A DNA stretch of 63,153 nt, the filler included, from Stramenopiles sp. TOSAG23-6 (lineage: Eukaryota), in NCBI GenBank assembly GCA_900128565.1. It is 48 parts of 48 records of this genome, joined end to end, with 100 filler letters (N's around TTAATTAATTAA, not from the genome) between each part and the next. Parts side by side here need not be neighbours in the genome. Positions count along the whole stretch, not along the records: positions 1,333 to 2,564 come from LT639435.1; positions 2,665 to 3,895 come from LT639436.1; positions 3,996 to 5,226 come from LT639437.1; positions 5,327 to 6,557 come from LT639438.1; positions 6,658 to 7,888 come from LT639439.1; positions 7,989 to 9,217 come from LT639441.1; positions 9,318 to 10,546 come from LT639442.1; positions 10,647 to 11,874 come from LT639443.1; 40 more parts are not named here. One strand, written 5' to 3'. This document shows, in pieces, positions 1,548 through 63,153 of this stretch. The position numbers were made by a program, and so were the translations under genes. The notes under the pieces were generated by a model, which was not told where the DNA came from, made no database searches, and saw only the letters and a program-made list of their open reading frames with translations. The number at the start of each line of letters is the position of its first letter. The stretch's first letter is position 1.

Positions 1548-2564
1548 TCAAGCAAACACCTTTTGGTATTGCTGAGCCAGTAGAAAGGCTTCGTCGTGAG
1601 TTGTTTTGGCATCTTCTTCGTCCAAACCAGCATCAATAGCAGCAGCCAGTCTGACCTGCATCATTGCCCATATATTGTGAAAAAATATTTTTGTTTTTGT
1701 TTTTTTGTTAGGTACAAAATTCCGTACGAAAAAATAAATTCGAAATTAAAAAAAAAAATAAATTCGAAATTAAAAAAATAAAACATCCTGAGCGAATCAA
1801 GCTCATCTCTGCGCTCCGAGATTCTCATCAGAGCACAAGCTTTGACATTTGCTGAGCTTTTTTCTGCTTCGTTGTGAGTTGTTTGAGCTTCTTCTTCTGC
1901 CAACTCAGCAGCTAAAGCATCAGCCACTCTGGCCTGCATCATTGCCCATATATTGTGAAAAAATATTTTTGTTTTCGTTTTTTTGTTAGGTACAAAATTC
2001 CGTACGAAAAAATAAATTCGAAATTAAAAAAAATAAAACATCCTGAGAGAATCAAGCTCGTTTTTGCGCGCTGATATTCTCTGTCGAGAACATGCTTTAG
2101 CCATAGCCGCTCTCTTTTTCTTACGCACGTAACGGTTATGCAACTTTAATCGTACGCGCTTATCCGAAAAGTCTATCTTTGATGGGATGTATTTTGGAAA
2201 AATATTTCAAAAAAAACATTAAAATTTGTTAGGTACGAAATTTCGTACGAAAAAAAAAATTCGAAATTGAAAATTAAAACATACATCTCCAAAGACTTGG
2301 CTTTTTGCATGCGATCAAGGAATTGCTTAACAGATTTCGACGGCGAAACATGACGGCGCGGACGACGAGAAACAACAGCTAATTCAGGTGGTGGCTTGTT
2401 CGCAGCATCGCGGCCAAGTTTCATTCTTCGGAGATACTTCTCCTCGGCTTCTTTTCGCCTAAGCAGCATCTTTTGACGATTCGCCCGACGTACATTCTTC
2501 GACTCACATCCGACTTTGACTTCTTGCATTTTCTTACACATTTTACGATAAGGCTTTTTAAAAC
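1548..2564 (-). CDS. Basic coiled-coil hypothetical protein, 4 exons, with an internally duplicated exon+intron unit
   Basis: Removing 2187-2284, 1948-2043 and 1670-1788 gives one frame (...KSLEIPSKIDF...ELDSLRAMMQARV...ELDSLRAMMQVRL...KVFA*). Confidence 0.7.
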
Positions 2565-2664
2565 NNNNNNNNNNNNNNNNNNNNNNNNNNNNNNNNNNNN
2601 NNNNNNNNTTAATTAATTAANNNNNNNNNNNNNNNNNNNNNNNNNNNNNNNNNNNNNNNNNNNN

Positions 2665-3725
2665 CAAAATGACTTATACTTTAAGGCTTCAGCAAACTCT
2701 CTATCATTTTTTATCATATCTTCTTCGTCGTACAATGATTTATACTTTAAAGCTTCAGCAAACTCTCTATCATTTTTTATCATATCTTCTTCTTCAAAAC
2801 AATCAAATCCGTCCTCGGCCGACTCATATTCAAAATCAGCGTCTATTTGTTTTGAACAAAATCGAAGTAAAATTTCAGAAGCCTTCAAAAAATCGCCATC
2901 AGAAATGTTTAAAGCTATTGAAATGACATGCTCATCGGCTTCATCAAAAATTGACTGCAGCACATCTACATTAGATTCACTATTACTACTATTATTCTCT
3001 GTCATGATTTCCGGATTTTCATCAAACTCACTCAAAGTGATATCATCCTCTACAGAACGCGAGTGGTCCAGTATATCAGACATTTCAAAAGTTTTTTTTG
3101 TACCAAATTCCGTACCTAATAAATTTATCTCCTCACTACCGTAAAGACTTATATGTTCAACAGTATTAAATTCACTATCAGGTAAATTCAAGGAGGTATC
3201 CATTTGTAAATTACTTATTGAAAAAAGTTCTTTGCTTTGTTCCGTTTGAGATTCAGTGTAAAAAGGTGGTGGTTTACTAAAAGGTTTTTCAAGTGTAGAC
3301 AGATCATTTCCATTGAATAAAACCTGATTTGACCTACTTGTGTTGAATACCTCTGCATTTTTTGATTCGATTAAGACACGTTGAAGTTCTTCGTCTTCTT
3401 TCTGTCGAATCAAAGCTCTTTCTGTTTCTTCTTGTTTTGATAATAATATAGCTTCTTTCAAGGCCGTTGTGTCAGAAACCTGCGTTAAATTAGAACTCAC
3501 AGCTGACAAAGCCAGAACTCTCTGTAAATTATCGTCTTCATCATGGCTTTTAAGTAGTGGTATACACCCAGTAACCACTGCATTAATTGCAGCTTCTATA
3601 TTCCCCTCGTGTTCCATAAAAAGACGAGGAATATCAATGGACTGAACTTTATTAGGACCAAATAATTCACTTAATACACTGCAAAGCTGCTTTTCATTGC
3701 TAATAACGCTGCCATGTGACTGCAT
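2665..3725 (-). CDS. Ubiquitin-binding protein (CUE/UBA-like and UIM-like motifs), partial
   Basis: EDDNLQRVLALS and EDEELQRVLIESK are UIM-like; LQSIFDEADEHVISIALNISDGDFLKASEILL is CUE-like. Confidence 0.6.
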
Positions 3726-4054
3726 CACACTCACTGAATAGAAAAGCAACCGATATCGCCTATATAATTTTGAAGATAGTAGCAACTTGTGATAAAGTCC
3801 ATCCCCTATTCAATGAGAACAACACTTGAAGTCGGCATATTTTGATTACAGTATTTTTTACTCCAGGGTAGGTATAGCAAAACTTTGTGTGCTAANNNNN
3901 NNNNNNNNNNNNNNNNNNNNNNNNNNNNNNNNNNNNNNNTTAATTAATTAANNNNNNNNNNNNNNNNNNNNNNNNNNNNNNNNNNNNNNNNNNNNAATTT
4001 TGTACCTAACAATTTTTTTTAGATTTTTTTTTGAAATATTTTTCCAAAATACAT

Positions 4055-5114
4055 AACTACAACACCTCTTACATCTGATGTGCAACGTTGGAGTGCAGAA
4101 TGGAATGAAACTATCCCTAACCCTAATGAAACTACCCCTAACCCTAGTCCTAACTCGACCAATTCTATCCATACAATAATTAATTCTACTTATCAATCAA
4201 TTTGGTGTGCATGTATGTTTTATTTTTTTTTTAAACAAAAAGATCGAAATTTTTTTTTTCTGGTTTTCGTACGAAATTTTGTACCTAACAAATTTTCAAA
4301 ATTGTTTTTCAAATATTTTTTCAAAATACATCTAAAAAAGATACTATCGATGCGTTTAACTATGCTCTATACTGTTGTTCATTAATACAACACAAATCAA
4401 CTGCGAGGACCTCTCTCGAAATTGCTCAATTGTTAGAAAAAAAACTTTTTCTATTTGGAATAATGAATGTTTTATTTTTTTTAAATTTTTTGTTTACATT
4501 TTTTTATAGTAAATTTTGTACCTAACAAATTTTTAAGATTTTTTTTNGAANTTTTTTNCNAAATACATTGATCATCACGAAATCGCATTAAAAATACAAT
4601 GGTGGTGTGTTCTTAAATCGTATAGAATGGTTGGAGATTCAATACGAGCAAGAGAAATTTTCATGTCTCATGTTTTGCCTCGTTTTTCTACATTAAAATT
4701 GTACTCGAATAACCCTAACCCTAAAAACCCTAACCCTAAAAACCCTACAAACCCTAGAAACCCTAGAAACCATAAAAACCCAAATCATTCAAATTCAAAT
4801 TCAAATGTTGCAGGAAACAAAAATAAATTTGAAATTCATGAGAAATGTAGTACAAAATTAGGTACGAAAGAACATTATTCTATCGAAACTTGGTTAAATT
4901 ATCCTCAGGGGGGAAATTTTCAGCAGAGTATTGACCCTAACCCTAGAGGTGAATATAGTAGTGATAGGGTTAGGGTTATGTCTCTGAAGAAAAAAACAGA
5001 TGAAATTATACATTATTCAAATTCAAATCTAGGCAAACAAAAGTTGAAAATTTTAGAAAAATTGTGGCAAGAAATTTTATTATCTGGGCTTGATTCGCAT
5101 ATGACGAAATCAAT
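4055..5114 (+). CDS. Hypothetical protein, 3 internal exons
   Basis: Continuous frame after removing 4213-4331 (GT-AT) and 4465-4568 (GA-AT). Confidence 0.65.
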
Positions 5115-5378: not shown

Positions 5379-6502
5379 ATTACACTTAATAGAGGAGTTA
5401 CTCATACACCAAACAATATACCTAGCCAAATACAAAAAGCAAATATTACACCCACAATAGGCACAATTCAACAAGACTATTCAGATGATAGTCCCTCGAG
5501 ATTATCCGATGAACCGATTAGTATGGCGGATGTATGTTTTATTTTTTTTTTTCAATTTTTTATCTAAAATTTTTTTTTTTTTGGTAAAAAAATTTTGTAC
5601 CTAACAGATTTTTTTTTTATAGAAAAATTTTGAAATATTTTTCCAAAATACATATGTATACAGTTATACAAAACGGATATTCTCAAAAAAATGAATTGGA
5701 ATGTGAAAGTTCCATTATTAATTATAATGGTAAATGTCTTAGGGAAATATCTTCACAAACTACTCTGACAATATATGTTTTTATTTTTTTTTTTAAACAA
5801 AAAAATCGATTTTTTTTTTCATACGAAATTAAAACCTGGAGATGATATATACAAGAACGTATTGAAAAGTAATTGTAATTTCATGGAAATAGAAAACAAA
5901 AAGAATGTACGTTTTCATTAGGGTTGGGGGTTTTTTTGTAATTTATTTTTTTTCATACGAAATTTTGTACCTAACAATTTAAAAAAATATATTTTTTTTT
6001 CACAATACATAGTTCACAAATAAACTTTGAGACGGCAGAACTGTATAAAAAAAAATGAAAATTTCAAGGTTTGTGTGATGAAGAAAATGGAACAAATCTG
6101 TCGGATTATAATCAAAAATTATTTAGAATGAGTGGAATTGAAACGTTTCAATCCCCAATTCAACAACTATCACCTATTCATAGTCCAATCAAAAATATTC
6201 CATTTCATAGTGTTGAAGCAAAAAGTGAAGATTTTCAAAAATCATCGAAATTTGATGCTAATGAAAATGAAAATGATTGGGGTGATATCTCAAATATATC
6301 ATCAATTGTTGACCATTGTGTGAATGTTGCTTCACCAACTTGTAATGTAAATGTATGTTTGATTTTTTTTTGTATGATTTTTTTTCGTACGGAATTTTGT
6401 ACCTAACAAAAAATATTTTGAAATATTTTTCCAAAATACATTTTCATTCAACAGTACGAAATCATGAAGAACAAAAAACGACACCTAAAAAATCATTTAG
6501 TC
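5379..6502 (+). CDS. Hypothetical low-complexity protein, multi-exon, with one truncated intron and one in-frame TGA (6056-6058)
   Basis: Frames join across 5532-5653, 5907-6010 and 6353-6441; the intron starting at 5773 lacks its 3' half. Confidence 0.45.
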
Positions 6503-8488: not shown

Positions 8489-8859
8489 ATGAGTAGATAG
8501 TTTTTTTTTAAATGCATAAAAAATATATAGCATAAATAGCATAGATGGCTTCAATAGGGCTGCTTGAGCCTCAGGGTACGTGCGGATTTGATTGCTAAAT
8601 TGTTTGGAAAAATGTGAAAATTAGTGATTAATTAAAGAACGGGTTCATTTAGGGTTAGGGTTGCTGACTACTAACTAACTACTACGGTATGATTTTGAAG
8701 ATTTTGACAGCGGTCAACAAGTCACTCGAGTGACTTCCTGAAGACTAAATAATTATAATTTAAACACAAACAACTTGGATTAATAGCTAGTATAATTACA
8801 AGCCTCCACCAATTAAACATATATATACATATATATATATATACGTACTAATAAACTTC

Positions 8860-9408: not shown

Positions 9409-10546
9409 AAAACTTGCAAAAGTTGATAATGGATTATTCACGACCCAACCAGTGTTGATAGAACGTCGTCCACTAGCACTAGCACTTCGTGTATTTCGTG
9501 TATTTCGTGTATTTCGTGTTTTTCTTCTCCCTCGAATTTGTGTCAAACTATTACTATTATAATGATTAGGGTTAGGGTTAATAGATATTTTCTTCCTCCT
9601 TCTTAATAGTCTAGGTTGACTTTTGCTTCGTCTTTTTCTTCTTATAGAAGTTTGACCATCATGTTTTGCGTGATGTTTCCATTTCGTACTAAATTTTGTA
9701 CCTAACGAATTTCGTATCTTTATATCTTTCATTCTATGTTTAACAATGGTTACTGCATTTCTTTCAGTCTTCCATCTATCTATATGTATTTTGGAAAAAT
9801 ATTTCAAAAAAAAAANTTAAATTTGTTAGGTACAAAATTTCGTACGAAAAAAAAATTAGATTTTTTTGTAAAAAAAAAAAATCTAAAATACATGCCTTTT
9901 TTTTCTTCGTTTGTTTGCTTCCACATGTGCTTTTCTTTCGATTTCTCGCCGTCTTCGATTTGGTCTTACCCTATACTTGAAAAAAATATAGACATTTTGA
10001 AAATTGTTAGATTTCTGGATTTTTAGGTATACACAATTTTTTTTTACAAAAAAAAAAAAAAAAAAAAAAAAATTTAAATTTCATTAGGGTTAGGGTTAGA
10101 TACATATTTTTCATATTCATTGATGTTCCTTTTAATGCCGATGTATTGTGAACAAATGTATTTCGCAAAAAAAACAAAGTCAGATATAGAATTTTCAATG
10201 TTCAATTCATGGTGAAAAAAATTCTAAAAAAAATTCAAAAAAAAAAAAAAAAACTAAATTTAAAATTCATCATTAAAAAATGAAAAAATGAAAAAATGAA
10301 AAAATACAAACTGTCACCTCTTCAATCTCNGAAGCAAATTTCCCACCCAATCTAGCAGCTCCAATTGTACCCTTTGCNCCNAGTCTAGCTGCACCNCGGG
10401 TNGTGTTGAATGCAATTCGTCCTGCTTCNATGTATTTTGGAAAAATATTTCAAAAAAAAAAATCTAAAAAAATTGTTAGGTACAAAATTTCGTATGAAAA
10501 CNAAANAAAAAATNGAAAAAAAGAAAACATACATTGTCCCTTTTGC
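9409..10546 (-). CDS. Arg/Lys-rich hypothetical protein, 5 exons
   Basis: One frame after removing 10430-10532, 10141-10307, 9971-10103 (GT-AG) and 9784-9891. Confidence 0.6.
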
Positions 10547-12026: not shown

Positions 12027-12690
12027 GGACGTTGACTCGAGAAATGTTAACAATCAAAAAAATTACAAAAAACGTCAGTGAAGTGAAATTCACTCCTGCT
12101 GTTATCGAACCATCATTTGGAGTCGGGCGAATTATTCAAGCTATCTTCGAACACAGTTACTATCAACGCGAGGAAGACAAGTCACGAGGTGTCATGAAAT
12201 TTCTCCCTGTTGTTGCCCCTGTCAAATGTGCATTATTTCCTTTATCCGGAGGTGACTCAGGTCCTTTTTCTGAAAGAGTTCAGCAAGTCCGTTCTGAGTT
12301 ATCAATGATGAATGTATCATGCCGAGTTGACGTACGTTTTCGTTTTTTTTTTCGTGTTTTTTTTTCGTAGTAAATTTTGTACCTAACAAAAAGATTTTAC
12401 TAAAAAAATATTTTTTCATAGTACATGCTTCCGCTGCATCAATTGGTAAACGATACGCTCGAAGCGATGAAATTGGTATTCCATTTGGTGTCACTGTCGA
12501 TTTCGAAACAATCAAAGAAGAATCAGAATTGTTTAATACTGTCACTTTAAGAGAAAGAGATTCAACTCATCAAATGCGTATATCAATTGACGAACTCCCA
12601 GAAATAATTGCAAGATTGTCTTCAGGACGTTTGGTTTGGTCTGAGGCATATGCTAAATATCCTAAAGTTGCCGTAAGCGAAGGTAAATAA
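12027..12690 (+). CDS. GARS1: Glycyl-tRNA synthetase (eukaryotic type), last two exons (12027-12331, 12427-12690)
   Basis: VIEPSFGVGRI; anticodon domain RVD|ASAASIGKRYARSDEIGIPFGVTVDF; VTLRERDS. Confidence 0.95.
12332..12426 (+). other. GT...AT intron, 95 nt
   Basis: GAC|GTACGTTTT...CATAGTACAT|GCT; removal restores the VDxSxxSIGxRYAR motif with no added residues. Confidence 0.88.
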
Positions 12691-18882: not shown

Positions 18883-19831
18883 TTATTGTGTTGTATAAAA
18901 ACATTTGTCTTGTGGTACCTGTGGTAACCATAACCCTAATGCAAAAGTATGAAATCGTTTTTTGGTATAACCAGCACTACGTTTGCGTTTCTTAGAAGTT
19001 CTTTGATTTGATGATGTCAAGTATTCTTTAAAATCATCTAGATAAAACACACTAACATCACCAGATTGCCATTTTCTAAATGTTTCATATCTTTGATTCA
19101 AACTTCTCTTCCAAGAATAAATTTCTACTTTCCATTTTGCTAATATTGCACTTTGTACGACTTCAGGAAATGTCACTTTTCCATTATTATCATTACCATC
19201 ACCAGTAACAAGAACTAAAGTCTGTTTTGTTTGACCATGATTTCGTTGAATTCTTGCTTGTATAGCATTCTGTAGAGCTGCATCGACTCCTTGCTCACCA
19301 CCAATAATAGCTACATTTTTTCGTGTTATTGTTTTAATTTTATTTGTGTTTTCAAAGCGAATATCATATAGTGCATTTGGTCCAGGGAATTTTGTCGTCG
19401 TATCATGCACATGACATACAGAACCACATTTTCTAAATTGTCCATAACCACCTTCTGATGAAGAGACTGATTTCAAATAACGCACTCGATCTCCTATGTT
19501 TAATTTTTGACCATTATCACATATAGTGTGAAAAATATTTTTTTTTTTTGTAAAAAAAAATCGTTAGGTACAAAATTTACTACGAAAAAATATTTCGGTA
19601 AAAAAAATGATGAAAAACGTACTAATTCGGCGTTCTAATTCTACTGCATAACCAGCTCTTTTCCAAAATGACCAATATGGTGTGTTAAGAGCACGCGCCG
19701 GTTCGATTTCACTTGATCCACACACTACACGAGCTCCTTTAATACGATCTAATTTTCTATTTTTTTCAACAATGTCAATAAGACAATTAAAATCCATATT
19801 TTTGCTTGTTCCACATTGAATATTACTAATA
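18883..19831 (-). CDS. NYN (PIN-like) domain protein, 2 exons (intron 19521-19622)
   Basis: EQGVDAAL, LVLVTGDGN and WKVEIYSW match NYN/LabA motifs. Confidence 0.75.
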
Positions 19832-23900: not shown

Positions 23901-24989
23901 CTGAAAAAATCTGTACGTTTTTTTTTTAAACCCTAACCCTAACTAAAAATACTAAAAATACTAAAAATACTAAAAATGTATATTTGTATGAACAGTGTAA
24001 AAAAATTAAATATTCAACATTTTTTTTTTTTTTTGAAATATTTTTTTTTCGTATACATCTTCATGGTTTTTCGATGGGTTGTATGATGTCACAGAGAATG
24101 GCAATGGAACATTCAAATATTATTGCTGGGTTTTCGTGTCATGGGGGAAGTTTAAACTGCATCCCATCTGATATTGCAGCAGGGAAAACCACTTTTAAGA
24201 TTGATTTAATGCCAGCTTTAGTGACAATTGGAAGTAATGATTCAAATTGGATAACTGGAGCAAAGGCAGGTGTATGTTTTTTTTTTTTCAAAAAAAAAAT
24301 TTCAAAATTTTTTTTCGTACGAAATTTTGTACCTAACAATTTTTTTTTTTTTGTAAAAAATATTTCTGTACAATATATATTCAAGCATGGAAAACATGGA
24401 ATTCGTGTACAACAAGTTCATCAACCTCACTAACTTTGACAGGGACAGAAAACACTTCAGCTACAAAGACAACGTATTCTTCATGTGCAGCTTACACACC
24501 TGCACTAAAAGTATGTTTTTCATCATGAATTTCTAATATTTTTTGTTCTTTTTGTCATTATGAATTTCAAAAAAAAAAAAAAAAAAAATTTATACAAAAT
24601 TTTGTATCTAACAAAAACAAATGTAAGAAAAAAAATTCAAAATATTTTTGATACTACATGTGGAACTGATTGAAATTGCAAACGCTGGTCATACAACAGA
24701 TGATCGAATGGCTACATTAAGTTGGAATTTTTTAAAAGTTTACGTATTTTTTTACAGTTACACTCTTTTTTATTTTTTTTATTTTTATGAATTTGTAATT
24801 TTGTACTGAAAAAAAAAAAAAGAACCCTAACCCTAATTGTACAGTTTTAAATATTTTTTAATCGTACAGAGTCGAACAGGAGCTTTAACAAATCTACCTG
24901 CAGCTTCAAAAATGACAAATGTATCATCTATGGCTGTGGTATCGACGCATTTGTTTGTATATTGCATATTTTTCATTGTTTTTTATTAA
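23901..24989 (+). CDS. Alpha/beta-hydrolase esterase (PHB-depolymerase/LpqC-like), 5 exons, hydrophobic C-terminal tail
   Basis: EKIY|LHGFSMG nucleophile elbow, W...N.C, IANAGH, WNFL; introns 23913-24056, 24272-24378, 24511-24659, 24744-24869. Confidence 0.8.
23913..24056 (+). other. GT...AC intron, 144 nt
   Basis: ATC T|GTACG...TTCGTATAC|AT CTT CAT gives KIYLHGFSMG; the AT two bases downstream breaks the frame. Confidence 0.7.
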
Positions 24990-25352: not shown

Positions 25353-26296
25353 GTTTGGATAGATGAAAAGCAATACCTGATTCCATTGATGAGTCTCCTT
25401 GGTTGTGGACGGAATAAGCAAACCAGTAGAAATCTACATTACCAAAATGAAAATTCAAATCAAACTAATCAGGGAAATAATTACATTACTGTAACATCTG
25501 TACGTTTTTTTTTTTTTTTTTTCGTACGAAATTTTGTACCTAACATTTTTTTGAATTTTTTTCTAAAAATATTTTTTTTTTCGTACGAAATTTTGTACCT
25601 AACATTTTTTTTGAATTTTTTTCTAAAAATATTTTTACAAAATACATGATGGCTCGATTATCGCAAAAGCTACAAAACAATATCTGAAAGGAGAGAGACT
25701 TAATATTGGATGTTATTGGCCCGCAAATGATCTCTTTTTACACACAGGATTTGTGGAACCAATGATGATGAAGTATGATATAATGACTAGTCAAACAGAA
25801 AATATTCAATTACATTCAGAAGTGCAAAGACAAATGATGTACGTTTTATTTTTTTTTCAAATTTATATTTTTTTTCGTACGAAATTTCGTACCTAACAAA
25901 AAAAAAAAAAAAAATTTGAAATATTTTTTTACAAAACATGAATGATTGTGTTAATGTTGAAATAAAATTATCAAATATTGAAAACATTGGAGGAAAAAAA
26001 TATAAGAAAAAAAAACGCCAATTGAAGTCAGTAGGTATTGACTATGTACGTTTTATTTTTTTTATTTTTTAAAAATTGAATTTTTTTTTCGTACGAAATT
26101 TCGTACCTAACAAAAATTAAATTTTTTTTTGAAATATTTTTCCATAATCCATGTACAAGATATATTCTGTCTCTCATCTGCAAGTCGCCCAGGTGGCGTC
26201 GCGGGTCATTCAACACAAGAGCTTTGGTCATTTCTTCGAATATTATATGATCTAAAGGACGAAGATGTCTTTGCGCCTCGGAGTACTCTTGCTCAT
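25353..26296 (+). CDS. SET-domain lysine methyltransferase (Rubisco-LSMT/SETD3-like), 4 exons
   Basis: LIPLM, AKATKQYLKGERLNIG...DLFLHTGFV, NDCVNVEI, ELWSFLRI after removing three GT-AT introns (25500-25647, 25839-25939, 26046-26152). Confidence 0.6.
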
Positions 26297-27918: not shown

Positions 27919-29013
27919 GAAGCATTTACAACACGAATATTAGCTGAATTTGATTTTTTTCTAGACTCTTACGCACACGAAATCGGAGTTTTATTAATTG
28001 AACCTCAATTTGGTTCTATAATAGCTGCCATGCCTTGGGATCCAAAATTACTTTATGAGTATATATGTTTTATTTTTTTTTTCAAATTCCAATTTTTTTT
28101 TTTATAAAAATTTTGTACCTAACTAACAATTTTAGATTTTTTTTTTTTGAAATATTTTTCCAAAATATATATTTACAGAGCACAAGAACGAGGAATTTTC
28201 GTGTGTGCTGATGAAGTGATGTGTGGATTAGGACGTCATGGAAAATTAGACAATTTGTTTTTGAGTGGTTGTACATTTTCATTATGACTATATGAATGTA
28301 AGGTTTTTTTTTTATACAAAATTTTGTACCTAAGAAATTTTAATTTTTTTTTTAAAATCTTTTTTCAAAGTACATGTCTTGATATACCACCAGTCGATGC
28401 TGTAACATTTGGAAAATCAATAGGTAATTTTTTTTTTTTTTAATTTTTTTTTTTAATTTTTTTTTTTTGGTTTTCATACGAAATTTTCATAGAAAACAAT
28501 TTTTTATATTTGGAATATATTTTTATATTGTAGGTGGTGGTGTATTTCCAATATCAGGAGCAATTCTAAGACAAGGTGCCTCAGAACTTGGCTCACATGG
28601 ACAATCTGTTTTGCAATCTCATACATGAATGTTTTACTTTTTTTCAATTTATAATTTATTTTTTTTGAAAATTTTGTACCTAAGAAATTTTTGAATTTTT
28701 TTTTTTAAATATTTTCCAAAAATACATATTGTGGCAGTTCTGAATTGGCTATTTTAGCAGCAACATCAACTCTTACAATGATTAAACAATGGCAACCTCA
28801 TATCCAAAATATATCAAAAATTCTTGAAAATATTTTTAATGATATTTCAAATGAAACAAATGATACAATTCTCATTCATGGTCAAGGTTTGATGTGGGGT
28901 GGAATTTTTCAACATTCTGATAAAGAGTTAAGAAATGAAGCAAAGATGATTTTACAAAAAAAATGTGAAGAACAAGGTGTTTTGCCTTATTTTGTACCAG
29001 TTGGAGGATTCAT
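27919..29013 (+). CDS. Class-III PLP-dependent aminotransferase, 5 exons (27919-28062, 28171-28270, 28376-28423, 28534-28626, 28728-29013)
   Basis: LLIEPQ, ADEVMCGLGRHG, DAVTFGKSIGGG.FP.SG, SHTYCG and GQGLMWG all fall in one frame after splicing. Confidence 0.9.
28063..28170 (+). other. AT...AT intron, 108 nt
   Basis: TAT|ATATGTTTT...AAAATATAT|ATT; family core present; joins LLYEY to IYRAQERG. Confidence 0.7.
28627..28727 (+). other. GA...AT intron, 101 nt
   Basis: ACA T|GAATGTTTT...AAAATACAT|AT TGT restores HTY; a +1 shift gives HTC and a +2 shift gives a stop. Confidence 0.8.
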
Positions 29014-33242: not shown

Positions 33243-34291
33243 ATGGAAAAAAAATATGTTTTGGTCTTTGTCATATCAGTGCAAAAAATGTACCCTTTTT
33301 ACTCTTTTGTAGTAATTTAGTGAGTGCTTTAGCAGCTGGTATGACTGTTAAATTTTTTCCAGTTTTTTTTAAAATTGAAGTCGGACTATCGCCAGTTTGT
33401 TTTCAATTTTGAATTTATTTATTTTTGAATTTTTTTTTTTCGTACGAAATTTTGTACCTAACATTTTTTTTTAAATAATTTTTTTTCACTAGTACAGGTT
33501 TGTGTCATGGCTGTATATGTCATAACGCCTATTTGTATGGCTATTTCAATATATGTGTCAAAAAGTATAGCAATTAACTACGGATTTGGACGTGTAGAGA
33601 CAGTTCAAGTGCAACGGTTTTTGGGTATGTATGTTTTTCAAAAAAAATTTCAAAATTTAAATTTTCAAAATTTTTTTTTAAAATTTTTTCTATATTTTTT
33701 CAAAAAAAAAAAATTTAAATTTTTTTTTTTTTTTAATTTATTTTTTTTTTTTTTTTTTTTTTTGTAGTATCTCTTCACTTCCCCTCCCTATTCTTCCTAT
33801 CCTCATAACAAAGAAAATGAAATTTGGAAAATATATTTTTTTAATACATTTTATTTCTAATTATTTTGGCTATTTTTAAGTCCTTATGGAAGCATAAAAT
33901 TATCTGTGTTTTTGTATACATTTTTCGTACCATTTTTACATCATCTGGATGGCCATTAATCAATTCAGTAATGAATGATTATACAAGAAAAGGAACACGT
34001 GCCAAGTATGTTTTATATATATTTGTATTTTCATACGAAATTTCAAAACGAATCAAAATAATATTGAATTTCAAAACGAAACAAAAAAAAATTTAAAAAA
34101 AATTTAAAAAAAAAAATGTGTGATTTTTTTTTTTTTTTAATTTTTTTTTTTCATACCTAATGATATTTTGTACTAAGCATTTCGAAACTGTACATATTGT
34201 ACCAAAATACATATGGAATTCGTTACAATCTATCGCTGGATTTGGCTGGTCAGGTTCAGCAGCTCTAGGAGGGATTTTAATACACAAATAT
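33243..34291 (+). CDS. Major facilitator superfamily transporter, internal exons
   Basis: LAAGMTVKFFPVFF, GRV, YIFRT...PL..SVMNDY...TRAK|WNSLQSI..FGWSGSAALGG; introns 33395-33497 (AG), 33629-33849 (AT), 34006-34212 (AT). Confidence 0.8.
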
Positions 34292-35763: not shown

Positions 35764-36912
35764 TGAAAACATGCATGGATTATGAAAAAATATTTCAAAA
35801 AAAAAAAACTCAAATTTGTTAGGTACAAAATTTCATACAAAAAAAACAATAAACTCGAAATTGAAAAAAAATAAAACATACAGGGTCGGATTCCCAACCT
35901 CGTGGTGCACTGCTACCCATTTCACTTCTATTGAGTTGTTGATCATAAAGATGTAAAATCATTGTACCTATATTGTGAAAAAGGTTTTTTGTTGGTACAA
36001 AATTTCATAAGAAAAAAATAAATTCGAAATTGAAAAAAAAATTGAAAAAAAAAAACATACCTACTGCAAAGACATCCATTGTGAAAAACTCACGTTTGGT
36101 CAACAATGAACCTTTCGAACTTCGTAACTCTCCATACTTTTCTCCTACACGTGGAAAGTATTATGAAAAAATATTTTAAATTCAATATTTTTGTTAGGTA
36201 CGAAATTTCGTACGGAAAAACCAACTACATTCGAAATTGAAAAACAATACAACATACGTCCTATATGCCACGTCATTTTGTAGATTCTTGACAAGCGTTT
36301 TATTAGTTTCATCCTTCGNNNNNNNNNNNNNNNNNNNCTTTTTCTTACTTCCATAATCAACTAAAGCAACTTTAATTTGACCATACTTTGTAATTTTTGT
36401 CATAATATTTTCAGCCTTTATATCACTGTTTATCCAACCTAAATCATTTAAATCCTTAATTGCCATCATTAATTGTCTAAATTTTTCCTTAAACACAACA
36501 TGAGGAGTATTTTGATTGCTTTTAAATTCTTTCGTATCTCCAAATATATCATCATACTTTTCAAATATTAAGGCATGACACCCCAATCTATTAATTGCAC
36601 CATAAAATTCAGGCATATATTGTGAAAAAATATTTTTTGGTTTTTATTAGGTACGAAATTTACTATAAAAANNNNNNNNNNNNNNNNNNNNNNNNNNNNN
36701 NNNNNNNNNNNNNNNNNNNNNNNNNNNAAAAAAAATAAAACATACATGTAATCCATGTGATAATTGTAATGTTTTGCATCACTTGAGATTTGAGTTATTA
36801 TTGTCTTTTCAATTTCAAAATGCTTTTTGTTTTTGAAAAGCTTGATTGCACGTAATTCACCATCTGCCAGATCTGCATTCTCTGCTGCTGCTAGTTCACG
36901 TACAATATACAC
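35764..36912 (-). CDS. Divergent Ser/Thr protein kinase, 5 exons
   Basis: RAIKLF, NSDIKAENIM, LVDYG, AYRT|P, MDVFAV|GTMILHL; introns 36615-36745, 36156-36257 (GT-TT), 35968-36060 (GT-AG), 35775-35881. Confidence 0.8.
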
Positions 36913-41068: not shown

Positions 41069-41514
41069 GTTTCGTACAAGCAAAGGAATGGGTGTGCGTA
41101 TGAATGGATGTTTGAGTGGTTTTGCACCTGCGATGAATGGTTTACTTGAAAGTTCAATTTTCACTCAGAATATTTGTTCGACAGTTGTTACTCATGTACT
41201 TGTACGTTTTATATGAATTTCTAATTTAATTTTTTTTTTTGGTTTCATACGAAATTTCGTACCTAACGATTTTTTTTTTCCGGTAAAAAATATTTTTTCA
41301 CAATACTTGTACGTTGTTCTTTTTACTTTCAAAAGTTATTTATTTTTATACCTAATACAAAGGTTTTGTACCTAACGTATTTCAAATTTGACATATTTTT
41401 TCACAATACTTGCCCCACGTCCTGGAGAAACAATCATTGATATGTGTGCAGCACCTGGAGGCAAATCAACTCATATTGGCGCACTTATGAAAAACGAAGG
41501 AATTCTTGTTTCAT
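41069..41514 (+). CDS. NSUN6: NSUN6-like tRNA m5C methyltransferase, exons 41069-41201 and 41412-41514
   Basis: GMGVRM...QN..S.VV.HVL|APRPGETIIDMCAAPGGKSTHI. Confidence 0.88.
41202..41411 (+). other. Two abutting GT...TT intron units (41202-41308, 41309-41411) with no exon between them
   Basis: CTT|GTACGTT...CAATACTT|GTACGTT...CAATACTT|GCC; each unit has its own GTACCTAAC and ATAT box. Confidence 0.85.
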
Positions 41515-41615
41515 GTATGTTATTTTTTTTTCAATTTCGAATTTATTTTTTTATAAAAATTTTGTACCTAACAAATTTTTTAGAATTTTTTTTGAAATAT
41601 TTTTTCATCATACAT

Positions 41616-42172
41616 ACAACTAGCTCAGAAAAGTCTATATAGTGCTGCGACTGCAAAAATGGACGATAATGGTATTGCTATAGCTTTTGTTTTACACATT
41701 ATCGCTGTAACTTCAATTAGTATGTACGTTTTCATTTCAATTTTTTTACCTACATTTTATTTTTTCATAGTAAATTTTGTACCTAACAAAAAACATGTAC
41801 TAAAACAAAATATTTTTCATCATATATGATTTTATGGAATGTGTTACCGAAAAGTATGAAAAAATACATTGAAATTTCAAATATAAACCAATCGGAGAAT
41901 ACAACAGTACAAAACACTTTGAAATATTACGTGTCTCTTGTGTTTAGTTTTTCAATGCAATCTATGGCAGATGACATGTACATTTTCATCATTGATTTCA
42001 ATTCGTTTTTTTTTTTATACGAAATTTTGTAGTTAACAAAAAAAACTCAAAAAAAATATTTTTTCACAAAATATGTTTTTAGTCATTGGATTTATAGTTA
42101 CACTTATTGGAATGACAAGTAGTTCAATAATTGAGAATGAACATTGCGTTTGGTATTTTTTACTTACTTCTT
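41616..42172 (+). CDS. PIGG: GPI ethanolamine-phosphate transferase (PIGG/GPI7-like), transmembrane exons
   Basis: MTSSSIIENEHCVWYF (compare ASSxVEEEHxxWYF); GT-AT introns 41724-41827 and 41978-42074. Confidence 0.65.
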
Positions 42173-42325: not shown

Positions 42326-42749
42326 AAAAATCGAAAATTGGTCTCAAAAGGTGGTTTTTTGTTTGTTTTCAATTTTTTTTTTTTTTTTTTTTTAGTATGA
42401 AATTTTGTACATAACAAAAAAAAAAATTTAAAATTATACGTAACAAAAAAAACGAATTCAAAATATTTTTTCACGATACATAGAAGATAAATTTGGACAA
42501 GAACAAATTAGCCGATTAAAGAAAGAAGGATTTAAAAGTCATTCAACGTACAAAACGTTTTTACTTCAAATTCCTGATTTAACTCAAGAAGAGCTTAAAA
42601 ACATGTATTGGTACAGTTCTAGTGCAAAACTTTCTGCTGAGGGAAAAAAAAGACAGAGAGAAAAAAAAGGCTTTTTTGAGGTCCCTTTAGTATATCATTA
42701 CTGCGGTCGATCATACAAAACTGATAATCCCTCAAATTTCAAAAAATAA
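42326..42749 (+). CDS. Hypothetical protein, C-terminal exons (intron 42361-42481)
   Basis: Open frame SKGGFL|EDKFGQEQ...NFKK*; missing from the ORF track. Confidence 0.55.
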
Positions 42750-43017
42750 AAAAAATATTAGGTACAAAATTTCGTACGAAAAAAAAAAAAATCAAAAAAA
42801 AAGTCTCTTTAGCGAGTTATTTACATAATACAGTTGTAGAGGATATAACTGATTTTATTATAAATTATAAATCTACTATTTGATATAAATATCGTAGATT
42901 TGAATATAACCAGTATTGACAAGAAGGATGGCACTTCATTCATACTTTCGAAATTGAAATTTTTTTTTGGTATGAAATTTCGTAACTAACAAATTTCGAA
43001 TTTGCTTAGTGTCACTT

Positions 43018-43536
43018 TCAAAAAGACATTTTGCGTGGAGTCTCAGATATACTAGTAATTTCTCTACTTGACACGTCACGTGTGTGGTGCTTTATAGGAG
43101 TATCTGCTATAATACTAATGACTCCTGGATTTCTTGGACTATTCGGTGCATTTTTCATCGGCGTTGAAATCTCTGTGAAAGGATTGAAATTTCTATTAGT
43201 ATTACTGCCTCTACGAGGACGAAATGGCTGTTTTGTTGGAGTATCTTGAATTACAGTCACAGAAGATGAAGTTACTTCCATTGGACGAACATTTTCGTTT
43301 TGTGTGCTTTGGATTTGTATTGGATGTAGTTGTATCTTTTTATGAGTTGATCCTACATGTATTGTAAAAAACAATGTAAAAAACGATTTTTTTCTTAGGT
43401 ACAAAATTCCGTACGAAAAAAAAACTAAATTTAAAATTGAAAACAAAATAAACCATACATGTAAGGATGGCGATTGTGTCCATCTTCGCCTTTTTTTTAA
43501 GGGAGGCGATTTTGTTGCAGACTCTTTTCCGTTGCA
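43018..43536 (-). CDS. TP/SP-rich hypothetical protein, C-terminal exons (intron 43357-43458)
   Basis: VIQDTP, IIADTP and ISETP repeats; frame restored by intron removal. Confidence 0.55.
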   Translation of the reverse strand, partial: CNGKESATKSPPLKKRRRWTQSPSLHVWFILFSILNLVFFSYGILYLRKKSFFTLFFTIHVGSTHKKIQLHPIQIQSTQNENVRPMEVTSSSVTVIQDTPTKQPFRPRRGSNTNRNFNPFTEISTPMKNAPNSPRNPGVISIIADTPIKHHTRDVSSREITSISETPRKMSF

Positions 43537-43636: not shown

Positions 43637-44847
43637 AAAAATCGAAAATTGGTCTCAAAAGGTGGTTTTTTGTTTGTTTTCAATTTTTTTTTTTTTTTTT
43701 TTTTAGTATGAAATTTTGTACATAACAAAAAAAAAAATTTAAAATTATACGTAACAAAAAAAACGAATTCAAAATATTTTTTCACGATACATAGAAGATA
43801 AATTTGGACAAGAACAAATTAGCCGATTAAAGAAAGAAGGATTTAAAAGTCATTCAACGTACAAAACGTTTTTACTTCAAATTCCTGATTTAACTCAAGA
43901 AGAGCTTAAAAACATGTATTGGTACAGTTCTAGTGCAAAACTTTCTGCTGAGGGAAAAAAAAGACAGAGAGAAAAAAAAGGCTTTTTTGAGGTCCCTTTA
44001 GTATATCATTACTGCGGTCGATCATACAAAACTGATAATCCCTCAAATTTCAAAAAATAAAAAAAATATTAGGTACAAAATTTCGTACGAAAAAAAAAAA
44101 AATCAAAAAAAAAGTCTCTTTAGCGAGTTATTTACATAATACAGTTGTAGAGGATATAACTGATTTTATTATAAATTATAAATCTACTATTTGATATAAA
44201 TATCGTAGATTTGAATATAACCAGTATTGACAAGAAGGATGGCACTTCATTCATACTTTCGAAATTGAAATTTTTTTTTGGTATGAAATTTCGTANCTAA
44301 CAAATTTCGAATTTGCTTAGTGTCACTTTCAAAAAGACATTTTGCGTGGAGTCTCAGATATACTAGTAATTTCTCTACTTGACACGTCACGTGTGTGGTG
44401 CTTTATAGGAGTATCTGCTATAATACTAATGACTCCTGGATTTCTTGGACTATTCGGTGCATTTTTCATCGGCGTTGAAATCTCTGTGAAAGGATTGAAA
44501 TTTCTATTAGTATTACTGCCTCTACGAGGACGAAATGGCTGTTTTGTTGGAGTATCTTGAATTACAGTCACAGAAGATGAAGTTACTTCCATTGGACGAA
44601 CATTTTCGTTTTGTGTGCTTTGGATTTGTATTGGATGTAGTTGTATCTTTTTATGAGTTGATCCTACATGTATTGTAAAAAACAATGTAAAAAACGATTT
44701 TTTTCTTAGGTACAAAATTCCGTACGAAAAAAAAACTAAATTTAAAATTGAAAACAAAATAAACCATACATGTAAGGATGGCGATTGTGTCCATCTTCGC
44801 CTTTTTTTTAAGGGAGGCGATTTTGTTGCAGACTCTTTTCCGTTGCA
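43637..44847. repeat. Duplicate of contig 42326-43536 (redundant assembly entry)
   Basis: Same length, same ends and same ORFs; the only difference I saw is one N. Confidence 0.95.
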
Positions 44848-55421: not shown

Positions 55422-56629
55422 ATTACTTTATTTTACGTCGGATCCGTTTCAAGATGTTGTAGAGATTGCATTAAATGCTTTGTCATCTACATGGATGTCG
55501 TTTGAACCAAGTGTACAGCAAAGTGTAACACAACAACCATTTGAAGTGCTTTATATGAAAGATTTATATCAATTTCTAATTTCCAAAGTTGAAGTTTTTG
55601 GAAACACTAGACAAGAAAATATGCGTATTTCATGTAGTAATGATGTCTTTGAAAAAGAGACTATTGATATTCATCTTTCTTTTATACTTGGCTCTATACA
55701 AGGATTGATCTATTGGAAAGCTTCTTTGATTTTGAAAACATATATAATTGATCAAAATAATGATAAGAATAATTTAAATGTAGATAATTACTCTGGTGCA
55801 AGGACTTGTCCTTCTATTTGTAATAATAATATTCTGTTTTTGCTACAAAAGTGTGGTTCCTTTATGAGTATTGATTTAATTATAGAATGTTTTGAAAAAA
55901 TCATTGAACCGTTGACACAGATGCTGGTTAACCCTAACCCTAATGGATCGAAGATAAATCATTCAAAATATTGGGGTAATTTATTAGCAATGGTTCAAGT
56001 GTTTTTATCCTATGTGCATGGTAACGTATTCAAAAAAGAAGATGTGAAAAACCAATCAAAAGAACATCTCAATGATTGTTTGAATNNNNNNNNNNNNNNN
56101 NNNNNNNNNNNNNNNNNNNNNNNNNNNNNNNNNNNNNNNNNNNNNNNNNNNNNNNNNNNNNNNNNNNNNNNNNNNNNNNNNNNNNNNNNNNNNNNNNNNN
56201 NNNNNNNNNNNNNNNNNNNNNNNNNNNNNNTGTTTGTATGTCCTACACGAAATATTTGATTATTGTTGTTGTAATACTAATGTTTCACTGCAGCTAAATA
56301 CCAAAATGAATGATATCGTCGCATTATGTTGTTGTTTCAATGTTTCATTTGAAGACAGAAAAGATGATAATGATAAGTATTCTTTTATAACCTCATGGGA
56401 TGTTCAAGAAATGGGTATATTGCCTTCTATATTAATCGGGAAATTAATAACAAAAAACAAAACAAATATACAATCTTTATATGATCGTTTTCCTGACAAA
56501 ACTGCTCATTCGATTCTACAAAAATTATTTTCGTGGTTACAAATGAATACATCTACAATGAAAACAACAACTCATTTAACAAAGATATGTAATACATATG
56601 ACTCTATATCGCATTCAATAGTACAATCA
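55422..56629 (+). CDS. Hypothetical helical-repeat-like protein, internal fragment
   Basis: Open frames on both sides of an N gap. Confidence 0.45.
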
Positions 56630-59411: not shown

Positions 59412-60418
59412 TCACCTACATGCTTCGCCTAATAAAGGTACTGCTAAAATGGAACAACGAGCAATTCCAGTTAAAAAATTCCATGTCAAGCCTTTTACAC
59501 GAAATCTTAAAAAATCTGCTAATTCTTTATGTACAACATTTTCTATAAAAACGCCATTATTATGGGTAACTTTAATTCTGATGGAACTTTCCTGTAAAAC
59601 AAGTGGATCAATATTTCGTGCGCAACTAGGCGCTTCAATCATTGGTTTACCTATAGCAATATTTGCTGGAGTATTTATCTTTTTTGTGTGAAAATATTTA
59701 AAAAAAAAAAATGTTTTTTGTAAGGTATGAAATTTAAAATTTTTTTAAAAAATTAAAATTTTTTTTTTTTAAATTTAAAATTTAAAAAAAATTTTTTAAA
59801 TTTTTTTTAAATTTTTTTAAAATTTTTTTTTTTAAATTTTTTTAAAACAAAATAAGTAACGTACGTGTAAAACAATGGGTTGCATCAAATGGATTGGAAA
59901 TGAATTTGGTAAAAGATTGACTTTTCGTGCAGCAATAGTTTGATCAATAATTGGATCTGAATAATAGGATGAAGATTGACCAGTGACAGACCTGTTTTGG
60001 AAAAAATAGTACAAATTTTTTTTTAGATTAAAATATTTGTTAGGTACAAGTTTTACTATGAAAAAAAAATTTACGAAAAAAAAAAAAAAAAAGTAAAAAA
60101 AATCATGATACACTTTGGACACGTGGCATTGAAAAACACGAAAAACATACCCACCCAAAACACTTGTACTTCCACTTCGTATTAAAGCTCTACGTATTGC
60201 TTCAGCAGATTTCGTGATTGTTGGTGGTTTTGTATTTGAATTCAAATTAATATTTTTATATTGTTGATGATGTTTCATTCGAGCATGTATTTTGGAAAAA
60301 TATTTCAAATTTTTTTTGTTAGGTACAAAATTTCGTACGAAAAAAAAAATTCAATTTCAAAATTTAAAAAAAAAATAAATTGTACATGTGTGCCATCAAT
60401 GAATTTCATGTTGGGAAC
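59412..60418 (-). CDS. Hypothetical protein, 4 exons including a 33-nt exon (60386-60418)
   Basis: Continuous frame after removing 60285-60385 (AT), 59992-60150 (AG) and 59679-59864 (AG). Confidence 0.6.
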
Positions 60419-60716: not shown

Positions 60717-61772
60717 ATGTAATGTGCTTACTCCTAAATTTTGAAAAGGAATTATCAAATTTAAGAATTACAGTACCAGCCTCGGGGCACACAAACGCAC
60801 CATATTGTTCATCTAGATGACACTGAACTCGCTCTGAGGGCATAAAGTGTACAACGTGTGAAGGCTGCGAAGTGACAATATTGTTGACTGAATTAGGTGA
60901 GTTATCTGAGATTGTATTCATTTGCTTTGGAGGTGTCATTGTAGTTGGACTGACTTTTTCTCTTTGAATCTCCTTATGGTTTTTGTAAGAGTTTTGAAGT
61001 TCTTGCCAATTTGTATTTGACTGAAACGTAGCACTGAAATTAATGTCATTTTTTGCTGAGAAAAAATTCCATGTAACTAGCTGACCAGGACAAAATATTG
61101 GAATTCTCACTTCATGACAACTACCACGGCTAACCCATAAAGTTTCGCCGCCTTTTTTTATACACTGATTTTGGGTTTCAGAACTTTCATTATCATCTAT
61201 AATGTTATTACTTTCTATATCGCTTGTACAAGATTTAAAAGAACGAAAACTTGAAATTCTATCAGTATCTTTTAAATCAATTGGTTCCATTCCATCTGCT
61301 ATATTTACATTTATCGCGACTTCATCGTTATTATCGATTTGGTGTTGGGAATGCTTAGGGTTAGGGTTAGTCAGTTGAGTATCATCATTTTCTTTTTCTT
61401 CTTTTTGATCATTAGGGTTAGGGTTATCTTCTCTTTGCTTAATTTTCCAGCGTCTCCACAAAAGTTCACTTTTAATACTATTAATTTGAACACTATTTGT
61501 AGTTTCGGATTTCCTGTTTCCACTTTTTTTGTCTTGATCTTTTTGAGAAGTCAAAGATAATTTCCTGATTACAGATTCATCATGTATTTTGGAAAAATAT
61601 TTCAAAAAAAATCTTAAAAAATTTGTTAGGTACAAGCAACATACATGAACAGAACTACTATTAAAGTTTTGCTCATCCAAATAATATGATACAAGATTAC
61701 CATTATCTGTATTAATCTGTATTGCAGATGATGGGCAGTACAGTCGTCCAAAAGAAGTCCAAACTGCACAAG
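60717..61772 (-). CDS. GOLD-domain protein, internal exons (63-nt intron 61582-61644)
   Basis: VTWNFFSAKNDINFS and GAFVCPEAGTVILKFDNSFSKFRSK. Confidence 0.8.
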
Positions 61773-61997
61773 ATGTGTTTTGGAAAAATATTTCAAAAAA
61801 AAAAACGTTAGGTACAAAATTTCGTACGAAAAAAAAATCGAAATTGAAAANNNNNNNNNNNNNNNNNNNNNNNNNNNNNNNNNNNNNNNNNNNNTTAATT
61901 AATTAANNNNNNNNNNNNNNNNNNNNNNNNNNNNNNNNNNNNNNNNNNNNAGTAGAGAGACTATCGATAGTTAAAATTAGATTGTTTTGTCAGTCCA

Positions 61998-63102
61998 ATG
62001 GCTGCATGGGATGGTAGTAGAGCAGAAGTCACCTCTACATCATCTGTTCTAACTCCAGGAACTGACGGACGCACCGATAGCGCAATGGCAGAAGATACTC
62101 GTAACTTCAATAACCTTGTCGAGGCGAGCTATCGTGGCCATGAATCCGCTGTTCGTCTCTTAATAGAGAAAGGTGTGGATATCAATATGAATAAGGGTGC
62201 TTTAGGTCGCACTGCACTTATGTGCGTTGCTTGCAAAGGTCAGGAATCAATGGTAACGCTTCTTCTTGAACTTGGAGCGGATCCAACAATTAGAGATAGT
62301 AACAACCACACCGCAGCCGAACTCGCACTCCAAAAAGGTCATGACTGGGTATCAGATACACTACACAGAAATATGGCTGTAGCCTTTGTCGCATCCGCTA
62401 AGAGTGGGAATTTAGCCAATGTGAAACGTTATGTTGATGGTAATGTTGATATAAATACTCTGAGAGGCGGGGGCGCACTTTTAGCAGCTTCAAGAGCTGG
62501 GCATGAAGATATTGTTCGTTATCTACTGAAAAATAACATTAAGGTAAACTTATGCAGTAGTGTCACGGGTAGTAGTGTAACCGGCAGTGCTACAAAAGGC
62601 GTAGCGTCAAGTCGATTGAGTAGGTCCAATAGCTTATCATTGAATCAAAGGATGAGAGCAAACAGTTGCGTTTCTGAAAGAAGTTTGAGAAACAGATCTA
62701 ATAGTTGTCTTCCAGGATTTACTGCGCTCATGGGTGCAAGTGTCGCTGGAAATAATAAAATTATTCAAATTTTGTTAGCTGCCGGAGCCGACTCAAAATA
62801 TAAAGATGCAGAAGGTAATAGCGCCGTAGACCATGCGTTGAAATTAGGGAATAAAATATCTGCTCAAATTATGAAAGAATTTAATGAACAAACACAGACC
62901 AGACTAGCAGTAGAAAAAGCACGAAAAAATGAAATTCGGTCAAAGGCAAAAGCGGATAGAAAGGCCCAGAAAGAATTGTTATTATTAGAAATAGAAGAAA
63001 AACGAAAAACGGAAGCGTTACACCGCCAAAAAAAAGAAACTGAAGCACAGCAAAAACTTGAAGAAGCTTATGCAATAGAAGCGAAGGCGTGTGCCAAGGC
63101 AT
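61998..63102 (+). CDS. Ankyrin-repeat protein, first exon (missing from the ORF track)
   Basis: ASYRGHESAVRLLIEKGVDIN, GRTALM, GFTALMGA; ends at a family donor (63103). Confidence 0.9.
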
Positions 63103-63153
63103 GTATGTTTTACTTTTTTTCAAATTCGAATTTTTTTTTCGTACGAAATTTTG

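Follow-up and report, generated by a model that had tools for sequence, protein, structure and literature searches.

The window and its genes

The window analysed here is a stretch of 63,153 nucleotides, filler included, from the AT-rich marine eukaryote Stramenopiles sp. TOSAG23-6 (GenBank assembly GCA_900128565.1), in which a single repeat, about 90-130 nt long and mostly ending in AT rather than AG, accounts for nearly every interruption of an open reading frame (ORF). It consists of 48 contigs of 1203-1232 nt each, joined by 47 N/TTAATTAATTAA linkers, and its GC content per 3 kb of window is 0.20-0.37. Contigs 33 (42326-43536) and 34 (43637-44847) are duplicates, with 1 difference, an N, per 1211 positions. 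The duplicate contig was left out of the curated counts of intron ends and of the profile match counts, for which the unique sequence amounts to 56.6 kb.

Under the standard code, the ORFs of the window read as ordinary eukaryotic proteins, among them a tubulin-tyrosine ligase, a gamma-tubulin complex component, THOC5, RAD51, a mitochondrial carrier, EF-hand and ankyrin proteins, a glycyl-tRNA synthetase (GlyRS) and a class-III aminotransferase. Copies of the repeat are hosted by the genes for GlyRS, RAD51, the aminotransferase and THOC5, by a kinase-like gene and by an ABC-like gene. The DNA of positions 23901-33034 is present in small runs of one organism and in seawater metagenomes; the sequencing runs that match this segment comprise 6 DNA and 6 RNA runs, and the RNA shares range from 0.05 to 0.11. 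The EukProt source label of a protein whose sequence equals that of the window GlyRS exons resembles the label of a MAST-3 stramenopile assembly; this is a hint at the taxon only, and it agrees with the stramenopile origin guessed in the preliminary description of this DNA. An Rfam scan of the window gave zero matches.

One repeat family interrupts the genes

The repeat follows the pattern GTAYGTTTT ... TTCGTACGAAATTTTGTACCTAAC ... ATATTTTTYCAMAATAYAT, and its alignment consensus runs from GTATGTTTTAT through a variable T-rich stretch, TTTTCGTACGAAATTTTGTACCTAAC and a second T-rich stretch to AAATATTTTTTCA-AATACAT. A 24-nt core of the family occurs 37 times at no more than 2 mismatches, compared with 0 occurrences in 100 shuffles. 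Using an nhmmer profile of 109 positions built from 14 family copies, 62 non-overlapping matches (E<1e-3) were found in the unique sequence, which corresponds to about one copy per kb, and 25 of the 48 contigs contain a family match at E<0.01. A brute-force frame search with every GT donor was too permissive, and a short hidden Markov model of the 5' end was too insensitive.

When the orientation of the 62 copies was compared with the flanking open frames, 38 were found to be sense and 1 antisense, with 23 undecided. This bias fits selection for splicing and speaks against a DNA-level excision resembling that of internal eliminated sequences (IESs). The two ends of the element form a short inverted repeat, ATGTAT...ATACAT, and it is this inverted element end that dictates the final AT of the introns. 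The interruptions are one introner-like family, a point that the preliminary description did not state.

A scan of public metagenome contigs (JGI collection) with the intron core produced one match, the 3.2-kb contig MDTB01012742.1, which carries a single AT-flanked family copy at 2474-2577 (minus strand). The host gene of this copy differs from the window genes and is otherwise without family introns, and telomere-like repeats lie downstream of it. The scan of viral contigs for the intron family and the protein-query scan of metagenomes each gave zero matches.

Most family copies end in AT, in the column of AG

The 3' ends (n=49, by hand) and 5' ends (n=60) of the family were curated independently of the counts in the preliminary description. 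AT closes 42 of the 49 curated 3' ends, AG 4 and TT 3; a pyrimidine is found at position -3 in 49/49 and A at position -2 in 46/49. Among the 35 complete introns, with the tandem pair at 41202-41411 taken as one, 29 end in AT, 4 in AG and 2 in TT, and their donors are GT (30), GG (2), GA (2) and AT (1). An extra GT-AG intron at 28424-28533, which stands outside the 35, has a decayed family core. The earlier claim that most introns end in AT is borne out by these counts. The AT that was counted is the end of a repeated element, and frames and homology suggest that it is also the splice acceptor. The tally on which the claim was based (48 introns, with 34 ending in YAT, 9 in AG, 3 in TT, 1 in AC and 1 ambiguous) has the same shape as ours, and its AC case is probably the truncated copy at 5773-5835.

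The AG, AT and TT ends share a single alignment column, so that AT does occupy the position of AG, as had been proposed. The information content is 1.3-1.7 bits over positions -7 to -1 (1.6 at -1) and 0.39 at exon position +1; from this drop past the last T it follows that the element ends exactly there.

GT forms 54 of the 60 curated donors, and GG, GA and AT account for two each. The hexamers GTATGT (26/60) and GTACGT (18/60) together place GTAYGT at 44/60 donors, and G+1, T+2, A-2 and T-1 are each conserved in at least 90% of the copies. A branch motif, CTAAY/TTAAC, is found upstream of 42 of the 49 ends at a distance of 29-104 nt (median 42 nt) from the end, and it is followed by a T tract, with T at positions -14 to -12 in 46-48 of the 49 ends. 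The branch motif, GTACCTAAC, is the best-conserved block of the family, and its GTA..A is invariant. The donor, branch motif and T tract are U2-like, in keeping with the preliminary description; the 3' terminal YAG of U2-type introns is represented by AG at only 4/49 ends.

Two classes of candidate were rejected. A U12-type intron is contradicted by the donors, 0/60 of which read RTATCC, and by a branch that lies too far from the end (minimum 29 nt, median 42 nt). Rules by which the first AG or the first YAT past the branch would be chosen fail as well, since between branch and end an unused AG is present in 14/39 and an unused YAT in 37/39 of the non-AG ends.

Exact removal of the inserted unit fits the encoded proteins

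Deletion from GT to AT (or to AG or TT) restores the reading frame in 23/24 introns that have a single open frame on each flank (p=1.7e-10 against a chance of 1/3), a result that shows the inserted unit and not the splice site, because any precise insertion restores the frame when it is removed. The earlier claim that frame restoration delimits the introns therefore holds for the precise GT..AT unit, and not for the place of cutting, which the test does not locate.

The proteins provide a second line of evidence. In the aminotransferase (contig 22), the junctions left by the removal of 28063-28170 and 28627-28727 lie in conserved regions and can be aligned with homologues without any indel. 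For 28063-28170 the spacing agrees with 3/4 of the homologues that align there, and for 28627-28727 the junction falls within the conserved HT-Y-xGSS motif. The top match of the aminotransferase exon among longer proteins is 48% identical; an esterase exon gave no match in the protein collections. In GlyRS, exact removal of 12332-12426 produces a spacing before the motif G[KR]RY[AS]R that fits 20/21 homologues, the other homologue being shorter by 1 residue. Homology supports exact removal for four introns in GlyRS and the aminotransferase. The conserved proteins need the interruptions to be taken out exactly, as the earlier argument from conserved genes had it that they must be removed.

We consider it probable that the interruptions are introners of U2 type that use YAU as acceptor and are spliced exactly from GU to AU. 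One introner-like, short and non-autonomous mobile element, acting as an intron, would have spread through the genes to a density of about one per kb, and every copy would carry its own signals: the donor GUAYGU, the branch UACCUAAC, a U-rich tract, and YAU about 42 nt past the branch. The element would usually sit at an AT, with one AT in the exon and the other AT closing the intron. The major spliceosome would retain Y(-3) and A(-2) of YAG and tolerate U, or in a minority G, at the last base, and the mark of the 3' site may lie in the roughly 14 conserved terminal nt (U tract and CAMAAUAYAU) or in their spacing. The contacts through which YAG is recognised at the second step of splicing are the basis for proposing a relaxed acceptor. 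An AG-independent modified major spliceosome had been put forward in the preliminary description; the U2 signals and the unsuitability of nearby AGs speak for it, whereas splicing itself is something that we infer. With slightly less assurance, we favour the broader view that a free-living marine stramenopile may use YAU as the routine 3' splice site of most of its introns, by way of one mobile intron.

Alternatives to an exact GU...AU splice

In addition to the limit of the frame test, several observations weigh against exact GU...AU splicing, and they are given here together with the alternatives that they favour. The first concerns the register. AT stands directly before the donor in 35/60 copies, against a background of 0.086, and is missing in 25/60, where TT is found in 8 and nine other dinucleotides share 17. 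Owing to the inverted ends and the preceding AT, the boundary of 20/31 non-AG introns has a 2-nt ambiguity: these introns can be slid at least 2 nt to the left with the same mRNA and can then be written either GT-AT or AT-AC. Wherever AT precedes, the introns could thus be of the form AUGUAUGU...AUAC, with GT-AT confined to the minority without a flanking AT. The GA and AT donor variants (4465, 28627, 28063, 5773) are AT-flanked in 4/4 cases, so that their first bases would be a normal AT in the shifted register, and A(+1)/C(-1) is a tolerated second-step pair in AT-AC introns. U2-dependent AT-AC introns are mentioned in PMC1557818.

However, 11/31 non-AG introns cannot slide 2 nt and are fixed as non-AG and non-AT-AC, yet in these, too, GT and YAT occupy their usual places in the element; 34006-34212 and 36156-36257 permit no slide whatever. 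Furthermore, the exon dinucleotide varies while the two terminal bases at either end of the element are kept. Read as AT-AC, the introns would close with AC, AT, CC or TC and so be more variable at the end than with YAT, and the U1/U6-type GUAUGU would be displaced by two bases to positions +3 to +8. The fixed cases, the variable exon dinucleotide and the more variable AT-AC ends favour GT-AT as the common register, and we regard a general AT-AC register as unlikely.

C at exon position -3 and G at exon position +1 (27/48) are enriched around the element, and a CATG-like palindromic target with its AT duplicated is suggested. When co-variation expected of a target site duplication (TSD) was looked for, the non-AT flanks were unlike the last two bases of the intron, the TT/TT tandem pair excepted, so that target preference, TSD and an element-internal AT are inseparable here. 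In that tandem pair, at 41202-41411, the second family copy follows the first directly, without an intervening exon; each is preceded by TT and reads GT...ACTT, and removal of the 210-nt pair restores the frame. The arrangement would be as expected from repeated insertion at one dinucleotide, and the pair would have to be removed by a single long splice or recursively.

A second alternative, to which we give a rather low probability, is that the copies are ordinary insertions of a miniature inverted-repeat transposable element that are spliced through nearby canonical GY-AG sites, with the proteins gaining or losing a few residues. At least one in-frame, stop-free GY-AG pair lies within about 45-60 nt in 24/28 non-AG introns, and genuine AG ends do occur, both at the 4 family ends noted above and in intron 28424-28533. 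The public annotation also picked a canonical site in GlyRS: the public coding sequence P0006, which is identical to the window GlyRS exons, is reproduced only with a nested GT-AG intron at 12336-12421, that is, GT(+4)...AG(-5). Against this, the GY-AG alternatives are inconsistent, shifting the mRNA by -90 to +54 nt, varying between introns and being absent in 4/28. The first AG behind the T tract, combined with the consensus GT or with a GT four bases inward, is in frame in 13/28 only, which is about chance, and the use of nearby AGs, which the preliminary description had itself raised as an objection, offers no general solution. Splicing of GlyRS through the nested sites adds 3 residues, V-L-H, that are found in 0/21 homologues, which argues that the public gene model was forced onto GT-AG and contains a spurious insert. 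At 28627-28727 all canonical alternatives delete at least 8 codons of the conserved motif, and the conservation of Y-A-T at the element end likewise speaks against canonical sites. In the public annotation of this assembly, GT-AG forcing of the kind seen in P0006 may be systematic.

Two exceptions are found within the family itself. Under the GT..AT model, removal of intron 41515-41615 does not join the frames; in our reading, they are joined only with the GT four bases inward, or the contig has an indel error. The six donors that are not GT (GG, GA and AT) would be hard for a standard spliceosome, or they may be errors of a low-quality assembly.

The RNA reads also count against the proposal. 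On contig 22, three RNA runs gave no joint at five introns, with exon cover almost nil; what cover there is comes only from intron-family repeats from other loci, with very high summed depth, and read depth on this contig is not a measure of copy number. One RNA contig (record 25) runs unspliced from exon 1 into intron 1, and in polyA RNA contigs the 3' parts of introns continue into exons that lie downstream in other genes. What the RNA runs show is unspliced RNA or carried-over DNA, while spliced RNA of the contig 22 gene has no cover.

Non-spliceosomal excision from RNA is a third alternative, in which AUGUAU would pair with AUACAU and an endonuclease and a ligase would act with a 2-nt stagger. 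End-pairing models have been proposed for the nonconventional introns of euglenids. In the window family four terminal pairs are formable in 84.7% of cells, the helix has a probability of at least 0.39 in 8/21 copies, and the AT direct repeat overlaps the boundary in each AT-flanked copy, a combination that resembles the Amoebophrya introners with inverted and direct repeats (PMC7789003). RNAalifold, applied to 28 copies, nevertheless returned 0 consensus pairs, the covariation of the terminal 4-bp helix was not above that of shuffles (84/500 reach it), and the helix is missing in 13/21 copies. The borders are uniform, the best-conserved internal block is the U2-type branch motif, and the donor is GUAYGU. 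We judge this alternative still a little less probable than the use of canonical sites; an assignment to end-paired introns of the euglenid or Amoebophrya type was rejected for the lack of conserved pairing and the uniform borders. RNA structure as a general determinant of the 3' site was rejected on the same folding results, with 0 consensus pairs, no covariation and a helix that is likely in 8/21 copies only.

Ciliate IESs are likewise short, have inverted ends and leave behind one copy of a flanking dinucleotide. Removal at the DNA level with one AT kept, or expression from insert-free gene copies, cannot be told from RNA removal by the frame and homology evidence and is nonetheless the most improbable of the four, given the 38:1 sense bias and an AT flank in only 35/60 copies, for which a ciliate-type IES was rejected, the conserved U2 signals, the ORFs that read in the standard code, and an independent seawater DNA run in which a contig spans an exon-intron border with a depth similar to exon contigs (records 7 and 8), with no insert-free DNA joint matching an intron on contig 22, where cover is thin. 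We infer that the copies are removed from RNA, with relaxed recognition at the second step.

Introns and other features of the window

The coordinates and ends of the individual introns are collected in Table 1.

Table 1. Introns of the window, with strand, exon bases directly before the donor and after the acceptor, and intron ends
Positions	Strand	Exon before	Intron ends	Exon after	Remarks
1670..1788	-		GGATGT..ATAT		tandem duplicate of the 1948..2043 unit; downstream frame closed (150-nt flank), uninformative
1948..2043	-		GGATGT..ATAT		exon flank CA; unique frames consistent; no left slide
2187..2284	-	AT	GTATGT..ACAT		frame consistent
4213..4331	+	AT	GTATGT..ACAT		frame consistent
4465..4568	+	AT	GAATGT..ACAT		frame consistent; without canonical in-frame alternative
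5532..5653	+	AT	GTATGT..ACAT		
5907..6010	+	AT	GTACGT..ACAT		no open frame downstream, uninformative
6353..6441	+	AT	GTATGT..ACAT		
9784..9891	-	AT	GTATTT..ACAT		
12332..12426	+	AC	GTACGT..GTACAT	G	GlyRS; without AT flank; homologue spacing fits
19521..19622	-	TA	GTACGT..TATAT	G	without AT flank; unique frames, consistent
24272..24378	+	GT	GTATGT..TATAT		without AT flank
24511..24659	+	AA	GTATGT..TACAT	G	without AT flank
24738..24869	+		..GTACAG		family-like; AG type; GT at 24744 is a possible alternative donor
25500..25647	+	CT	GTACGT..ACAT	G	
25839..25939	+	AT	GTACGT..AACAT		without canonical alternative
26046..26152	+	AT	GTACGT..TCCAT		
28063..28170	+		ATATGT..TATAT		aminotransferase intron 1; GT-AG impossible in every equivalent register
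28271..28375	+	TT	GTACAT..GTACAT	G	aminotransferase intron 2
28424..28533	+		GTAATT..TGTAG		aminotransferase intron 3; canonical GT-AG; junction gives the GGG motif of the homologues
28627..28727	+	AT	GAATGT..ATACAT	AT	aminotransferase intron 4
33395..33497	+		..GTACAG		AG type
34006..34212	+	AA	GTATGT..ATACAT	A	family-like; unslidable
35775..35881	-	CT	GTATGT..TCCAT	G	11-nt downstream exon
35968..36060	-		..ATATAG		AG type
36156..36257	-	AC	GTATGT..ATACTT	T	TT end; unslidable; unique frames, consistent
36615..36745	-	AT	GTATGT..TATAT		internal N run
41202..41308	+	TT	GTACGT..ATACTT		first abutting copy
41309..41411	+		GTACGT..ATACTT	G	second abutting copy
41515..41615	+		GTATGT..ATACAT		sole frame-inconsistent case
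41724..41827	+	AT	GTACGT..TATAT		
41978..42074	+	AT	GTACAT..AATAT		
43357..43458	-	AT	GTATGG..ATACAT		repeated in duplicate contig 34
57053..57152	-	AT	GTATGT..ATTCAT		ABC-transporter-like gene
59992..60150	-		..AAACAG		AG type
60285..60385	-	AT	GTACAA..ATACAT		
61582..61644	-		GTATGT..ATACAT		63 nt; without 5' half

Several copies have an unusual structure. On contig 2 (1670-2043, minus strand), an exon and its intron are tandemly duplicated, and both donors read GGATGT instead of GTATGT. Within the intron at 25500-25647, about 59 nt are duplicated in tandem (50/59 identical, ungapped), so that it has two branch-site cores. The copy at 5773-5835 is truncated to its 5' half, starts with ATATGT and runs into coding sequence after CATACGAAATT. 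Antisense fragments of the core at 3078-3127 and 9675-9715 (both plus strand) lie within long ORFs of the minus strand on contigs 3 and 8; they are seemingly read as coding and are possibly exonised antisense copies. Partial family copies at 42756-42786 (minus strand) and 42947-43002 (plus strand) are noncoding and are situated between convergent genes on contig 33.

A telomere-like 12-mer, CCCTAACCCTAA, occurs 11 times in the window, with 0 occurrences expected (100 shuffles). It is found at 4115-4126, 4713-4739, 8649-8660, 9566-9577, 10084-10095, 23931-23942, 24825-24836, 55932-55943, 61355-61366 and 61412-61423, both inside introns and inside coding frames, where it is read as repeats of the N-P-N-P type.

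Implications and comparison with known systems

The terminal AG of introns is among the most conserved signals of eukaryotic gene expression. To our knowledge, only a few natural systems dispense with it (tunicates, Amoebophrya and euglenids), and all of them are messy. If the proposed YAU acceptors are real, the last-base G of introns would be dispensable in nature at genome scale, and this organism would allow the second catalytic step and 3' site choice to be studied in a clean experiment of nature, with donor, branch, Y(-3) and A(-2) kept and only the last base changed. A mobile element would then have imposed its own end sequence on the splicing code of its host, which would bear on the origin of introners and on the speed with which intron-rich genomes can be made. 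Errors are likely in the gene models of this abundant, uncultured group where annotation pipelines demand GT-AG, and they would be systematic if the proposal is true. Should RNA data confirm it, the splicing machinery would be one that picks intron ends by an unusual rule.

A literature search that took in papers on uncultured stramenopile genomes brought up neither GT-AT-dominated introns nor MAST-3 introners, although supplements may hold intron statistics. Introners with terminal inverted repeats (TIRs) and TSDs are known from many protists, stramenopile algae among them; what would be new here is that the acceptor AT of an introner family stems from its own terminal repeat.

Introners have been described in Micromonas, Aureococcus, Symbiodinium, Chrysochromulina, Florenciella and others (Gozashti et al. 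2022, PMC9860276). The window family shares with them the presence of many near-identical short elements in unrelated genes. According to the same account, introners are spliced as introns, some families have TIRs and/or TSDs, introner splice sites are either borne by the element or recruited through the TSD, and mRNA length is mostly unchanged. The splice sites given there have GY at the 5' side (rarely GC or GA) and a GY/AG core, in contrast to the AT at 42/49 ends of the window family, and the direct repeats are 3-9 bp long, compared with 2 nt (AT) here. The window family has a density of about 1/kb.

Amoebophrya (Farhat et al. 2021, PMC7789003) is likewise a marine protist with mostly non-canonical, repeated introns, and inverted end repeats, short direct repeats over the boundaries and ambiguous borders are described there as well. 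No terminal dinucleotide is reported to predominate among its introns, and the exons are proposed to be brought together by a hairpin, whereas the window family has uniform GT..YAT ends with a strong U2 donor and branch, and its copies show neither conserved nor covarying structure. In tunicates of the Fritillaria/Oikopleura type, an escape from GT/AG at genome scale has been described, together with a modified major spliceosome (changes in U2AF and in U1/U6) (PMC13326754; 10.1101/2025.08.15.670264). The boundary types in those accounts are different ones, while in the window family the donor is canonical and only the last base differs.

Physarum (Larue et al., 10.1101/2020.10.12.336362) offers a comparable case of element-like introns, with thousands of introns for which an origin from elements is proposed, inverted ends and a TA target duplication, and GT-AT occurs among its transposon-like U12 introns. 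The donor described for these is RTATCYTT and the branch lies 10-12 nt from the end, whereas the window family has GTAYGT and a branch at a median of 42 nt.

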